A stretch of DNA of 62,843 bases from a virus (Duplodnaviria; Heunggongvirae; Uroviricota; Caudoviricetes): positions 64,001 through 126,843 of the IMG/VR virus record IMGVR_UViG_3300021963_000042. One strand, given 5' to 3'. The notes under the pieces were generated by a model. It made no database searches. It had not been told where the DNA came from and saw nothing but the letters and a program-made list of their open reading frames with translations. Numbering within the stretch: the stretch's first letter is position 1; each line of letters begins with the position of its first letter. The position numbers and the translations under genes are program-made. Below are positions 30,642 to 62,401 of the stretch, piece after piece.

Positions 30642-30826
30642 GATCCATCATCACAAACTAATCTGACCCAAACAGGTCCAGTAGACAAATAGCACCCACG
30701 CATCTTTGGGTTTAATTCGTCTGGGTGTAAAAATTCAAATGATAGTCTCCAGTGGCATGGGTTAAGCACAAAGCCAACCCAAGCACCAGAGTATCTAATG
30801 TAATTAAGATAAGTCTTTAACTTCAT
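30635..30826 (-). CDS. Hypothetical protein
   Basis: 63 aa ORF in operon. Confidence 0.55.
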   Translation of the reverse strand: MKLKTYLNYIRYSGAWVGFVLNPCHWRLSFEFLHPDELNPKMRGCYLSTGPVWVRLVCDDGSW

Positions 30827-31361
30827 CGCACAGTCCTAATTTTTTCGCTTCTTGTGGGCTGAGCCACATATCTTGCGGTGGTAGTAAAATTTCACGAATC
30901 TTTGCTTCTGATAAACCAGTACACTTTTTATAGTGCGCAATCATTTTCTTAGTCGTCAAATCAAATTCTTTAACAGTAGCAAAGAGTTCGTGTTCCTTAC
31001 CAAATGCACCCCATGAATATTGGTGTGACAAGATCGATGTATTTGGCGTCAAGATTCTATGTCCCTTATCACCTGCGATAAAAATCATAAGACCAGCTGA
31101 AGCAATTTGTCCAAGACCAATTGTTCTAACTGGAACCGCAGATCCTCGCATTACATCAATCAAAGCAAATGCTGCATTCAAATCGCCACCTGGAGAGGTG
31201 ATAATCAAATTTAACATATCGGGACGTTCTTCTGCGAAGTTCGCTTCGAACATCCACTCAGTTGCTTGTTTGATAGATGTAAGGGAAATTTCCTCCATTA
31301 ACAAGAAGAACGAGTGTTTAGATTGCTCTTCCTTTAATTGCAGATTCAGTTTTGACATCAT
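30804..31361 (-). CDS. clpP: ClpP-family protease
   Basis: LIITSPGGD..A.FALID.M, T.GLGQIASAG (catalytic Ser), R..TPNTSILSHQ (catalytic His), D.WLS..EA...GL.D. Confidence 0.9.
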   Translation of the reverse strand: MMSKLNLQLKEEQSKHSFFLLMEEISLTSIKQATEWMFEANFAEERPDMLNLIITSPGGDLNAAFALIDVMRGSAVPVRTIGLGQIASAGLMIFIAGDKGHRILTPNTSILSHQYSWGAFGKEHELFATVKEFDLTTKKMIAHYKKCTGLSEAKIREILLPPQDMWLSPQEAKKLGLCDEVKDLS

Positions 31362-32281: not shown

Positions 32282-32545
32282 TTATTTCTTTGCTGATGCT
32301 GCTGGCGCAGGGGCAGATGCTGCCTCAGCTTTTTTCTCTACAGGTTTCTTAGGTGTAGGCTTCTCAGACTTAGGAGCAGGTGGGCAATTACCTTTCTTGT
32401 CTTTAGTGACGCAATTAGTTTCTTGCTTCTTCTCAGCTTCTTTCTTAGCAGATGCTGCCATCTTCTCAGGGTCGGGTTGCTTTGCTGCTTGAGCCATAAC
32501 ACCAGTAGCAACAGTCAGTGCCAAAATTGCGATAAGCGATTTCAT
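32282..32545 (-). CDS. Secreted Lys/Ala/Pro-rich hypothetical protein
   Basis: Signal peptide MKSLIAILALTVATGVMA; two Cys. Confidence 0.65.
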   Translation of the reverse strand: MKSLIAILALTVATGVMAQAAKQPDPEKMAASAKKEAEKKQETNCVTKDKKGNCPPAPKSEKPTPKKPVEKKAEAASAPAPAASAKK

Positions 32546-32659
32546 AAAAATTCCTTTAAATTAAAAGTTAAACAGTCGCATATTAATGTCGTCACTTTAG
32601 TCAGTACAAGAGCCACAGGGCATCGGTTGCTAACATCGAGCAAAGACTTCACTAATTCG

Positions 32660-32977
32660 TGGTAGGTTATTCTGTTACGAGGAAACCTACCGAAACCCTA
32701 AGCAGCGTTTAGGCTGCTAATGCGTAGACAGAGTCGTTTGCATTTACTTTGTTTGCTTCTTCGACCGAGTTACCCCAATCCTAAAGGCTTTCGCATTGCC
32801 TAGTTGTCCACTTCTGTACTTGTTGCCCTGTCGAAACCTAGTCACCCCCATCAGAAACATACTATTCTTGATTTAATCAAGTGCCTTCGTTAGGGTCTGC
32901 AATAGTATGCTTTTGGTGGAGGTGGGGAGAATCGAACTCCCGTCCAGAACACTTTTCTAGTTGCTTCATACAACCAT
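32660..32977 (-). ncRNA. ssrA: Circularly permuted (two-piece) tmRNA, tag ANDSVYALAA*
   Basis: Minus strand order: acceptor piece with T-arm GGGAG-TTCGATT-CTCCC and CACCTCC-A-CCA (ends 32914); 64-nt intervening hairpin; GGGGGTG-ACTAGGTTTCGAC (starts 32849); tag 32741-32709. The acceptor stem contains G3:U70. The 3' end of the coding piece is approximate. Confidence 0.9.
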
Positions 32978-32983
32978 AAACTT

Positions 32984-33012
32984 ATTATACGCTAACAGTA
33001 TTTATATGTCAA
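32984..33012 (-). promoter_or_regulatory. Composite promoter for tmRNA: perfect TTGACA-17-TATAAT with T4 late TATAAATA in the spacer
   Basis: -35 at 33007-12, -10 at 32984-89, TATAAATA at 32999-33006. Confidence 0.8.
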
Positions 33013-33662
33013 ATACCTTTTTTAATCTTGTACTCAAGTCTCAACTTTTGGAATTCTCCGATCCAACTATCTCTCTTCTCGATAAACAACAAAGGGTCTT
33101 CATTGTCAACACCCATAATAATTACAAGTCTACTAACAGGAATGCCAGTTCGTTCCTCAAAAGCAACTGCGTATGCAGAACATTGCATAAAGTATCCATG
33201 AATATCATCACGAGACTTTAATCTTGCAGATGTCTTGAAGTCAATTACAGATAGCTTACCTCTGAATTCACCAATACAGTCTACAGTTCCTGCGACTTCC
33301 AAGTGATCTGAATAGAGTGGAGTTTCAAGAGCATGAACATTATCTATTTCTCCGAGGATGGGTGATATGCTGTTAAATAATTCTCTATCGAAGATGTCAA
33401 CGTCGTATTCTTCATTGCGGAGATATGATTCGCATAATGAGTGGATTCGTGTCCCTCTCGCTGCAGCTCTACCTGAGATTCTGTTGGCTTCTTCGTTTCC
33501 AACTCTTGCTCTCCACTGTGCGATTGATTTTGCTGAGTGCAGTCCTGTGACTGTTGTGACGCTTGGATAGGCTCGACCCGATGGCGTTTGATATAATCTC
33601 GAACCATCGGTATTTGTGACACGTTCCAATTTGGGAATATCATGATGTATAAAATTTGCCAT
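33009..33662 (-). CDS. PD-(D/E)XK exonuclease (T4-like cyanophage 'exonuclease A' type)
   Basis: YPSVTTV...RGTRIHSLCE.YL...LE..LYS...AGTVDCI......VIDFKTS...Y..QC.AYA. Confidence 0.85.
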   Translation of the reverse strand: MANFIHHDIPKLERVTNTDGSRLYQTPSGRAYPSVTTVTGLHSAKSIAQWRARVGNEEANRISGRAAARGTRIHSLCESYLRNEEYDVDIFDRELFNSISPILGEIDNVHALETPLYSDHLEVAGTVDCIGEFRGKLSVIDFKTSARLKSRDDIHGYFMQCSAYAVAFEERTGIPVSRLVIIMGVDNEDPLLFIEKRDSWIGEFQKLRLEYKIKKGI

Positions 33663-37069: not shown

Positions 37070-37098
37070 ATTATACTCCAAATGTGAATAAATGTCAA
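37070..37098 (-). promoter_or_regulatory. Sigma70-type early promoter
   Basis: TTGACA-17bp-TATAAT; ATG 6 nt downstream of -10. Confidence 0.8.
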
Positions 37099-40018: not shown

Positions 40019-40047
40019 ATTATACCTGAAAACAAGATTAATGTCAA
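40019..40047 (-). promoter_or_regulatory. Sigma70-type early promoter
   Basis: TTGACA-17bp-TATAAT. Confidence 0.8.
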
Positions 40048-61131: not shown

Positions 61132-61207
61132 TGGTGCCCCAAGAGAGACTCGAACTCCCGACCTTCGCATTACTAATGCGCTGCTCTACCAACTGAGCTA
61201 TTAGGGC
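61132..61207 (-). tRNA. tRNA-Thr(AGT)
   Basis: 76-nt cloverleaf; G1-C72, C2-G71; loop TT-AGT-AA; CCA encoded. Confidence 0.85.
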
Positions 61208-61209
61208 AT

Positions 61210-61719
61210 TTAATATTCACTTATTTTAACGTCTTTCAATGCTGCTACAGTTTCATCGTAAGATGCTTCTTTAACACAAAGACTTAAAATTATTCTTTCC
61301 TGATTAGACATGTTCATAACACAATGCTCATGTTTAACATTAAGAATAGTGGGTTTGTATAGTATATATTTCACTTCATCAAGTGTATAGTACAAAGATT
61401 TGTTTTCAACATCATCATAAAGTTTGGATCTATAAAAAGCACGTCCACCTGTATCATTGATTGGAAAATTTATAGAGCACTGTCTGACGTTTTTGTCAAT
61501 GTGCCAGTCATACAATGAGTTTGGTGGATTCTTAATCCATAACGCACTTACGTCGCCGATTAAATTCTTCAGCGACCTAATAAAATTAGAATTGTTAAAC
61601 ATAGTTCCCGCACGATAATCGTTTGGTGATACGTTTAATTTATAGGTAGCATTCATCCCTTCTTTGATGTATCGTGAAGATAGATCAGGAAAATGCTCTA
61701 AGCAATAATAATTTTTCAT
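61210..61719 (-). CDS. Putative 2OG-Fe(II) oxygenase / cupin-like protein
   Basis: YDWHID...SINFP...PTILNV...H.V.N.S...R.ILS; start trimmed to 61719 because the longer ORF overlaps tRNA-Ala. Confidence 0.65.
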   Translation of the reverse strand: MKNYYCLEHFPDLSSRYIKEGMNATYKLNVSPNDYRAGTMFNNSNFIRSLKNLIGDVSALWIKNPPNSLYDWHIDKNVRQCSINFPINDTGGRAFYRSKLYDDVENKSLYYTLDEVKYILYKPTILNVKHEHCVMNMSNQERIILSLCVKEASYDETVAALKDVKISEY

Positions 61720-61727
61720 TTTATCCT

Positions 61728-61802
61728 TGGTGGACCGTAAGAGAATCGAACTCTTACCTCTGACGTGCAAAGCCAGCGTGCTCCCATTATCACTAACAGC
61801 CC
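61728..61802 (-). tRNA. tRNA-Ala(TGC)
   Basis: G3:U70, loop TT-TGC-AC, CCA. Confidence 0.92.
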
Positions 61803-61807
61803 AAGTA

Positions 61808-61882
61808 TGGCTCCACAGGCAGGGATCGAACCTACGACCAATTGATTAACAGTCAACTGCACTACCGCTGTGCTACTGTGGA
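61808..61882 (-). tRNA. tRNA-Asn(GTT)
   Basis: Loop CT-GTT-AA, G73, CCA. Confidence 0.92.
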
Positions 61883-61906
61883 ATATAACTATCTATTCTA
61901 AAATTT

Positions 61907-61980
61907 TGGTGCCCCATGACAGAATCGAACTGCCATCCTCGGATTACAAAACCGATGTTCTACCATTTAACTAATGGGGC
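61907..61980 (-). tRNA. tRNA-Thr(TGT)
   Basis: Loop TT-TGT-AA, CCA. Confidence 0.9.
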
Positions 61981-61984
61981 GAAT

Positions 61985-62061
<77 letters not shown>

Positions 62062-62068
62062 ATAAAAC

Positions 62069-62143
62069 TGGTGGTGATGGTTGGATTCGAGCCAACGACC
62101 TGCTCCGTATGAAGGAGATGCACTACCGCTGTGCTACATCACC
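62069..62143 (-). tRNA. tRNA with CAT anticodon (Met or Ile2)
   Basis: Loop TT-CAT-AC; T loop CTCGAAT (C at position 54); CCA. Confidence 0.82.
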
Positions 62144-62242
62144 ATAAAGGGTTATACTGGCAGGTGCGGTATCTGGTCTCGACTTTAGGATGTCTCAACT
62201 TGCCCATGCTCCTTTTTCTTTCCTTACCAATACAACTTTTTA

Positions 62243-62317
62243 TGGTACCTTGTGACGGGATCGAACCGCCGACCTTCTCCTTGTAAGGGAGACACTCTAC
62301 CGCTGAGTTAACAAGGC
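62243..62317 (-). tRNA. tRNA-Val(TAC)
   Basis: Loop CT-TAC-AA, A73, CCA. Confidence 0.9.
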
Positions 62318-62324
62318 AAATAAC

Positions 62325-62401
62325 TGGTGCCCACGCAGAGACTCGAACTCTGAAAATTTGGCTTCTAAGACCAACACGTATACCAATTCCGTCACATGGG
62401 C
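62325..62401 (-). tRNA. tRNA-Leu(TAG), short variable region
   Basis: Leu-type D arm (A15), A73, loop CT-TAG-AA, 5-nt variable loop. Confidence 0.85.

Follow-up and report, generated by a model that had tools for sequence, protein, structure and literature searches.

A circularly permuted tmRNA gene with a late-type core in its promoter in an uncultured T4-like phage

Transfer-messenger RNA (tmRNA) is the RNA that frees stalled ribosomes. A locus at positions 32,660-33,012 of a 62,843-nucleotide stretch of viral DNA resembles the gene for this RNA, ssrA, with its two halves in reversed order, and the question it raises is whether the virus carries a working rescue RNA of its own. The stretch, hereafter the window, is the second half of the 126,843-base IMG/VR record IMGVR_UViG_3300021963_000042 (CheckV completeness 72%). 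The source is a T4-like myophage, and tail sheath, scaffold, baseplate and fibre genes are encoded in the same record. The nearest cultured relatives belong to the Kyanoviridae, with a protein identity of just 45-56%, and no close cultured DNA relative was found, the best DNA matches spanning 1% of 20 kb. From its sequence and from comparison with relatives, the locus is most probably, at roughly 85%, a functional, circularly permuted ssrA gene from which a lytic T4-like phage makes a two-piece tmRNA. Coordinates below are those of the window and refer to its minus strand, unless another record is named.

A permuted tmRNA gene

An initial annotation made from the letters of the window had proposed a circularly permuted, two-piece tmRNA and had pointed to ARAGORN and to covariance models as the means of checking it. 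Both agree with the proposal. ARAGORN at default settings called a permuted tmRNA at 32618-33006 with the tag ANDSVYALAA*. The Rfam model RF04321 (tmRNA_permuted) matched with 122.8 bits (gathering score 47, E = 1.7e-23), and RF01850 (beta_tmRNA), the top-scoring model of the tRNA/tmRNA clan, matched with 100.5 bits (gathering score 84, E = 2.2e-29). A search of the whole record with Rfam gave the same tmRNA result as the window. The assignment is far beyond chance. The expectation that standard callers can miss the gene did not hold, as ARAGORN defaults and Rfam find it easily. The coordinates of the elements were verified by reading the sequence and by script, and every element that had been listed was found in its place.

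The permuted order is evident from the CCA end at 32914, which is followed by a segment of 64 nucleotides (nt) and then by GGGGGUG from 32849. The acceptor piece (32914-32975, 62 nt) is delimited by the Rfam alignment and by compensatory pairs across 46 relatives. It holds the 3' strands of helix P2 (32975-32970 and 32951-32945), the T-arm (within 32945-32925, with 32941-32938 pairing with 32928-32925), the 3' strand of the acceptor stem, CACCUCC (32924-32918), the discriminator A (32917) and the encoded CCA (32916-32914). The intervening segment, or spacer (32850-32913), was said to fold back on itself, and its arms, CAUACUAUU (32909-32901) and AAUAGUAUG (32866-32858), are indeed present. Its closing stem (32912-32905 with 32855-32862) is stacked on the acceptor stem and carries compensatory changes, and all relatives fold with such a stem. 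A 4-nt leader, UGAU, stands just before G1. By analogy with what is known of two-piece tmRNAs (PMC11915505), the spacer would be excised and so would not be part of the mature RNA.

The coding piece (32659-32849, about 191 nt) is supported by the Rfam alignment, the alignment of relatives and pair counts. It opens with the 5' strand of the acceptor stem, GGGGGUG (32849-32843). In the reassembled 7-bp stem, G32847 is paired with U32920, and the G3:U70 alanine determinant that had been noted is thus in place. The 5' strands of P2 follow at 32830-32824 and 32807-32802. The tag reading frame (32709-32741) reads GCA AAC GAC TCT GTC TAC GCA TTA GCA GCC TAA and encodes ANDSVYALAA*, in agreement with the earlier translation and with ARAGORN. 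Helix 5 (32718-32714 with 32705-32701) has the stop codon in its loop, and the 3' terminal hairpin, GGUAGGUU/AACCUACC (32661-32691), is supported by its fold, a conserved loop and compensatory pairs. A further hairpin 5' of the tag (32801-32785) has a stem that covaries by eye (AGGC/GCCU, CGAC/GUCG, CAUC/GAUG).

Between the hairpin at 32801-32785 and the tag lies an extra, lineage-variable one, GAUUG/CGGUC (32763-32780). Only 11 of 46 relatives have it. One AU pair is replaced by GC in a compensatory change, and in two relatives the loop is enlarged by an insertion.

Conservation among relatives

Relatives were sought in IMG/VR with a pattern that combined the CCA end, a gap of 40-70 nt and the 5' half. 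The same arrangement is present in 65 IMG/VR contigs, nearly all of which share the gene order PhoH, GH19, exonuclease, tmRNA, p91, cell-wall hydrolase, ClpP. The shared order indicates that the contigs represent one phage clade in which the tmRNA is inherited, and that the gene is a stable part of a T4-like genome and not host flanking DNA. Four clade members are 100%-complete genomes of 160-171 kb, and the gene described here is 98% identical to its copy in a complete relative of 170.8 kb. ARAGORN read a tag in 57 of the 65 contigs, nearly always ANDxx[F/Y]ALAA, and most of the contigs without a tag call are interrupted by a contig end.

Forty-seven distinct copies were aligned with MAFFT, and the helices were tested by RNAalifold and by pair counts. 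Compensatory changes were found in P2 (32975-32970/32802-32807), in P2b (32951-32945/32824-32830), in the T-arm, in the closing stem of the spacer, in helix 5 and in the 3' hairpin. The T-arm exchanges GC, AU, CG and UA pairs. The exchanges in P2 and P2b are UA, CG, GC and AU, with canonical pairing in 41-46 of 46 sequences at each position. Sequence conservation ends just past 32661, after the 3' hairpin. The tag frame is conserved through synonymous changes: codons vary synonymously at N, D, A, L, A and A, positions 4-5 are free, and position 6 is aromatic. This pattern of codon variation is that expected from selection on a ClpX-type degradation tag. The clade is widespread, uncultured and T4-like, and within it the tmRNA gene is inherited stably and under selection.

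One relative (L046:7561-7952) retains the acceptor piece, the spacer and the 5' half, has unrelated sequence in place of the tag frame and forms a very long branch. This copy looks broken or rearranged.

The promoter and its late-type core

The initial annotation had placed a perfect TTGACA-17-TATAAT promoter before the gene, with a T4 late element in its spacer. The first part stands. The -35 hexamer TTGACA (33007-33012) and the -10 hexamer TATAAT (32984-32989) give a match of 12 of 12 with a 17-nt spacer. The window holds three perfect sites, all on the coding strand; the other two are at 37070-37098 and 40019-40047. Sites with at most one mismatch number 9 in the window against 0.96 expected, and this ninefold excess indicates that the phage uses consensus sigma-70 early promoters. 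GTATAAT is also enriched upstream of open reading frames (ORFs). Transcription by the host RNA polymerase with sigma-70 would initiate at about 32977-32975. This predicted start falls on the base of the acceptor piece at which the pairing of P2 begins, and the piece would therefore need no 5' processing.

The second part stands only in modified form. The octamer TATAAATA, a T4-type late-promoter-like core, occupies 32999-33006, the first 8 bases of the 17-nt promoter spacer. Recognition of this late promoter in T4 depends on gp55, together with gp33 and the sliding clamp (Geiduschek and Kassavetis 2010, as cited in PMC9004378). As in T4, the exact octamer is present, a homologue of the late sigma factor gp55 is encoded in the record (42% identity, E = 6e-19), and an NTAAATA core precedes structural and other late genes, namely those for sheath, scaffold, baseplate tube-cap, head-closure, DNA end-protector and fibre proteins. 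Unlike in T4, the element is embedded between the -35 and -10 hexamers of a perfect sigma-70 promoter, and the commoner late form is CTAAATA, exact TATAAATA being rare. The 7-mers CTAAATA, TAAATAT and TAAATAA are enriched 7-8 fold within 70 nt upstream of ORFs. TAAATA occurs in the spacer of 10 of 15 distinct sigma-70-type promoters of clade tmRNAs and of 10 of 286 other sigma-70-like sites (Fisher 3e-10), in a contrast that takes contigs without regard to their kinship. The offset of the core and its flanks differ among the clade promoters.

The disregard of kinship is one of several points that weigh against reading the locus as a working gene with a late-type element in its promoter. Exact TATAAATA is not enriched: the window has 2 copies against 3.2 expected, and the record of 126.8 kb has 4 copies against 5 for the reversed control. 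On these counts the late-promoter claim was at first judged unsupported, a judgement that was reversed after tests of the shorter core. In the RNA itself, the acceptor stem is invariant among relatives because the search pattern demanded it, and the pseudoknot PK1 was seen only as the hairpin at 32801-32785, where gaps introduced by MAFFT make the pair counts unreliable. Finally, this copy has no T-run after the 3' hairpin, and no terminator-like site was called on the strand. With the T-run missing, the transcript may continue into the gene at 32545-32282 or end by processing.

A T4-type late promoter is nevertheless supported computationally, as an element like TATAAATA, a gp55 homologue and the same element before late genes are all found. 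Its core inside the early promoter seems designed for early and late expression, and we give a true dual promoter for the tmRNA about an even chance. If this reading is true, the importance of ribosome rescue to the phage extends beyond take-over to the whole of infection. A wider and more tentative possibility is that the clade keeps a composite promoter, with a gp55-type core inside the sigma-70 spacer in at least nine sequence arrangements, by which the phage would supply a rescue RNA during all of infection, with the downstream ClpP providing the proteolytic core that acts on tagged products. The composite promoter is the only feature that we did not find described in the literature, phage two-piece tmRNAs having been published already. 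The gene is thus a well-supported but ordinary example of the known phage two-piece tmRNAs, and the promoter is its one small new feature.

Proposed route and host partners

The working gene may be read as follows, the structural steps being taken from sequence and covariation. For the biochemical steps, the proposal follows what earlier work has established on two-piece tmRNAs (Keiler et al. 2000; Sharkady and Williams 2004, as cited in PMC9004378 and PMC11915505). After initiation by the sigma-70 polymerase, and probably late in infection also by gp55-directed polymerase from the late-type spacer core, with a leader about 17 nt longer, the precursor would fold to bring the 3' CCA end of the first piece together with the 5' GGGGG of the second in the 7-bp acceptor stem, which contains G3:U70 and would be prolonged by the stem that closes the 64-nt spacer. 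Host tRNA-processing enzymes would then excise the spacer, RNase P cutting at G1 and 3' trimming proceeding back to the CCA. The products would be the 62-nt acceptor piece and the coding piece of about 191 nt, joined by helix P2. Host alanyl-tRNA synthetase (AlaRS) would charge the RNA with alanine, and host SmpB would bring the charged RNA to stalled ribosomes. Translation would resume at GCA and append ANDSVYALAA, and the ALAA end would direct the product to ClpXP-type proteases. The likely benefit to the phage is that ribosomes are kept free during the destruction of host messages and the shut-down of host ssrA.

The dependence on the host follows from what the phage lacks. The earlier observation that no smpB is in the window extends to the whole 126,843-base record, in which PF01668 has no match, and to the four complete relatives, which have none either. 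The RNA must therefore use host SmpB. The locus is not a self-contained tmRNA-SmpB system, which leaves its membership of the RNA family unaffected. No ClpX was found in these phages. The RNA would thus work with the SmpB, AlaRS, RNase P and unfoldases of the host.

A phage RNA that draws on the host pool of SmpB could also harm the host. It might compete for host SmpB and ribosomes and swap in a phage tag, thereby interfering with host trans-translation. The absence of SmpB from the record and from the four complete relatives agrees with such a role, and so does the tag, in which positions 4-5 are free among relatives, with AND and ALAA fixed, while bacterial beta-type tags among the matches listed are ANDERFALAA or ANDEQFAIAA. 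Since positions 4-6 are unlike those of bacterial tags, the phage tag could alter adaptor recognition. There is also a precedent in a tag-less mycobacteriophage tmRNA reported to inhibit host tmRNA (PMC11915505). We consider interference improbable as the explanation of the locus. The tag is complete, under selection and terminated by ALAA, just as ordinary trans-translation requires, and no sequence antisense to, or specific for, host tmRNA is present. Interference also overlaps with a working ssrA gene more than it excludes one.

The 3' end and the downstream genes

Of 46 relatives, 26 have a terminator-like T-run after the 3' hairpin. The copy described here has neither T-run nor called terminator, which makes read-through likely, and in most relatives a small ORF with a ribosome-binding site follows the tmRNA. 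The RNA could then mainly serve the downstream genes (32282-32545, p91, hydrolase and ClpP) as a processed 5' leader or as a stabiliser, with its tmRNA-like fold as the signal for processing. This explanation is still less probable than interference. Besides the T-run of many relatives, a leader would not conserve a tag frame through synonymous changes, the G3:U70 pair or an encoded CCA, and p91 is preceded by a late-type core of its own.

The first downstream ORF (32282-32545, 87 codons) stands directly after the tmRNA and has a ribosome-binding site. Its N-terminus appears by eye hydrophobic and signal-peptide-like, as in a putative exported protein, and it has no match to any Pfam or PHROG family. 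The small ORFs at this place in the relatives have similar starts and different sequences.

Relation to bacterial two-piece tmRNAs

The bacterial counterparts were searched with the same acceptor pattern and a spacer gap of 20-50 nt. At least 120 bacterial genomes matched, mainly Rhodocyclales (Azonexus, Dechloromonas, Thauera, Azoarcus, Accumulibacter), Oxalobacteraceae and Cupriavidus. The phage gene shares much with the betaproteobacterial two-piece tmRNA of RF01850 (Sharkady and Williams 2004, as cited in PMC9004378 and PMC11915505): the permuted order, the GGGGGUG/CACCUCC acceptor stem with G3:U70, the GGUUUCGAC box, the AND...A[LIV]AA tag, and a spacer that is closed by a stem, with a 4-nt leader ahead of G1. 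It differs in lying in a T4-like phage without smpB and in the middle of its tag, which is SVY here and ERF or EQF in the bacteria. The spacers differ in length as well, with a median of 61 nt (53-70) in the phage clade and of 28 nt among the bacterial matches listed. This comparison is approximate, as the gaps searched were 40-70 nt for phages and 20-50 nt for bacteria.

The viral sequences are also separate from those of Rhodocyclales and Oxalobacteraceae in a maximum-likelihood tree. In this tree, which is unrooted, whose bootstrap is not fully settled and whose bacterial side has spacers of 20-50 nt, a branch (support 92/80) divides 103 bacterial sequences among the matches listed from 47 of the 48 distinct viral ones. 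Such a separation argues for long residence in phages. The idea that the gene is a decaying passenger, a host ssrA copy gained by recombination and now unused, has in its favour that loss does occur, as in L046 with its missing tag region and very long branch, but it is the least probable of the alternatives and very unlikely, given a complete gene nearly identical to that of the complete 170.8-kb relative, helices that all keep their pairing through compensatory changes, the viral side of the tree, and phage genes on both flanks in a T4-like contig.

Some Oxalobacteraceae genomes (L070, L089, L103, L108, L147 and L168) have beta-type permuted tmRNAs with long, odd tags of 21-30 residues and longer spacers, and both L089 and L103 come from a single Noviherbaspirillum assembly with two genes of this kind. 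Such genes may represent second copies borne by mobile elements.

Relation to tmRNAs of other phages

Two-piece tmRNAs are known from phages. That of the Methylophilales phage Melnitz follows an early promoter (Buchholz et al. 2022, PMC9004378), and 53 distinct two-piece tmRNAs were counted among 402 tmRNA-bearing phage genomes, mostly aquatic (PMC9004378). As in Melnitz and the pelagimyophages (PMC9004378), a complete permuted ssrA lies here in a T4-like myophage, just after an early sigma-70 promoter, and a phage smpB was not reported for Melnitz. The Melnitz gene, however, is of the alphaproteobacterial type and comes with a glutamine riboswitch, whereas the present gene is of the beta type, and no riboswitch at or above the Rfam gathering score was found anywhere in the window. 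The late-type core inside the early promoter is a further difference from Melnitz. That large aquatic phages have two-piece tmRNAs of their own is already published, and the locus is a further, well-documented case.

Mycobacteriophages of cluster C have a one-piece tmRNA, and the form in DS6A is tag-less (PMC11915505). The likeness to the present gene is a phage-borne ssrA that relies on host SmpB. The differences are the standard order there and the missing tag frame in DS6A, in contrast to the permuted order and selected tag here.

Beta-type permuted tmRNAs were found in Stenotrophomonas phages of the genus Menderavirus (e.g. Marzo, MZ326868), in Xanthomonas phage Rb1 and in the freshwater cyanophage Synechococcus phage BUCT-ZZ01. 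The genes of Marzo, Rb1 and BUCT-ZZ01 match the same model as the present gene, RF04321, with 103-119 bits. With RF01850, Marzo and BUCT-ZZ01 score 94.5-94.6 bits, and Rb1 has no match at the gathering score. These cultured phages and the present gene have in common a stem-closed spacer that ends in UGAU or a similar leader and an AND...AA tag. The acceptor stems and tags of the cultured phages, VAANDDSYTVRIAA, ANDDNFRPALRLAA and ANDETFSMALAA, are unlike those described here, as are the genomic positions, the Marzo tmRNA lying inside a tRNA cluster. The tmRNA is unannotated in 12 of 17 related GenBank phage records.

The hosts of the cultured phages with a beta-type gene are Xanthomonadales or a cyanobacterium. 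Deduction of the host from the tmRNA type was therefore rejected: the type travels with phages and does not identify the host, and a phage tmRNA of the "beta" type gives no indication of a betaproteobacterial host.

The downstream ClpP gene

A ClpP-family protease (30804-31361; PF00574, 104 bits) with an intact Ser-His-Asp triad is encoded on the strand of the tmRNA, 1.35 kb downstream of its tag. In the clade, a tmRNA on the same strand precedes ClpP by 0.9-4.0 kb at 44 of the 47 ClpP loci whose upstream DNA is long enough. Among cultured phages, the closest homologues of this ClpP are those of RsoM2USA, BUCT-ZZ01 and Phosso, and all three phages carry a permuted tmRNA. In the Ralstonia jumbo phage RsoM2USA the order is the same, with the tmRNA about 1 kb upstream of ClpP, and in BUCT-ZZ01 and the Sinorhizobium phage Phosso both genes are present and far apart. 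A literature search for a described link between phage tmRNA and ClpP found none.

The pairing is thus a lead. It was not upheld as a general phage module, because a tmRNA lies within 10 kb of the more distant ClpP loci in just 2 of 80 cases, and two phages with a tmRNA, Marzo and Rb1, lack ClpP. The search of IMG/VR found no relatives of the RsoM2USA ClpP.

The RsoM2USA tmRNA (331728-331923 of that record; RF04321, 96.7 bits) lies in an unannotated gap of the published 344-kb genome, and the genome paper makes no mention of tmRNA or Clp.

Neighbouring genes and other observations

The neighbours of the tmRNA are all phage genes on the same strand and encode a PD-(D/E)XK exonuclease, a GH19 lysin, PhoH, a cell-wall hydrolase, the ClpP-family protease and a GP88-family protein. 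The exonuclease ORF (33009-33662) is directly upstream, and its TGA stop (33009-33011) falls inside the -35 hexamer of the tmRNA promoter.

A cluster of eight tRNA genes (Thr x2, Ala, Asn, Pro, Met, Val and Leu) is located at 61132-62401, distant from the tmRNA. In the closest complete relative, the gp55 homologue (G001:C1:73085-73432) is reported with one in-frame TAG. In BUCT-ZZ01, a tRNA with a CUA anticodon, which reads amber codons, lies about 1 kb from the tmRNA (L198:2875-2950). The in-frame TAG and the CUA tRNA may point to amber suppression in this phage group.

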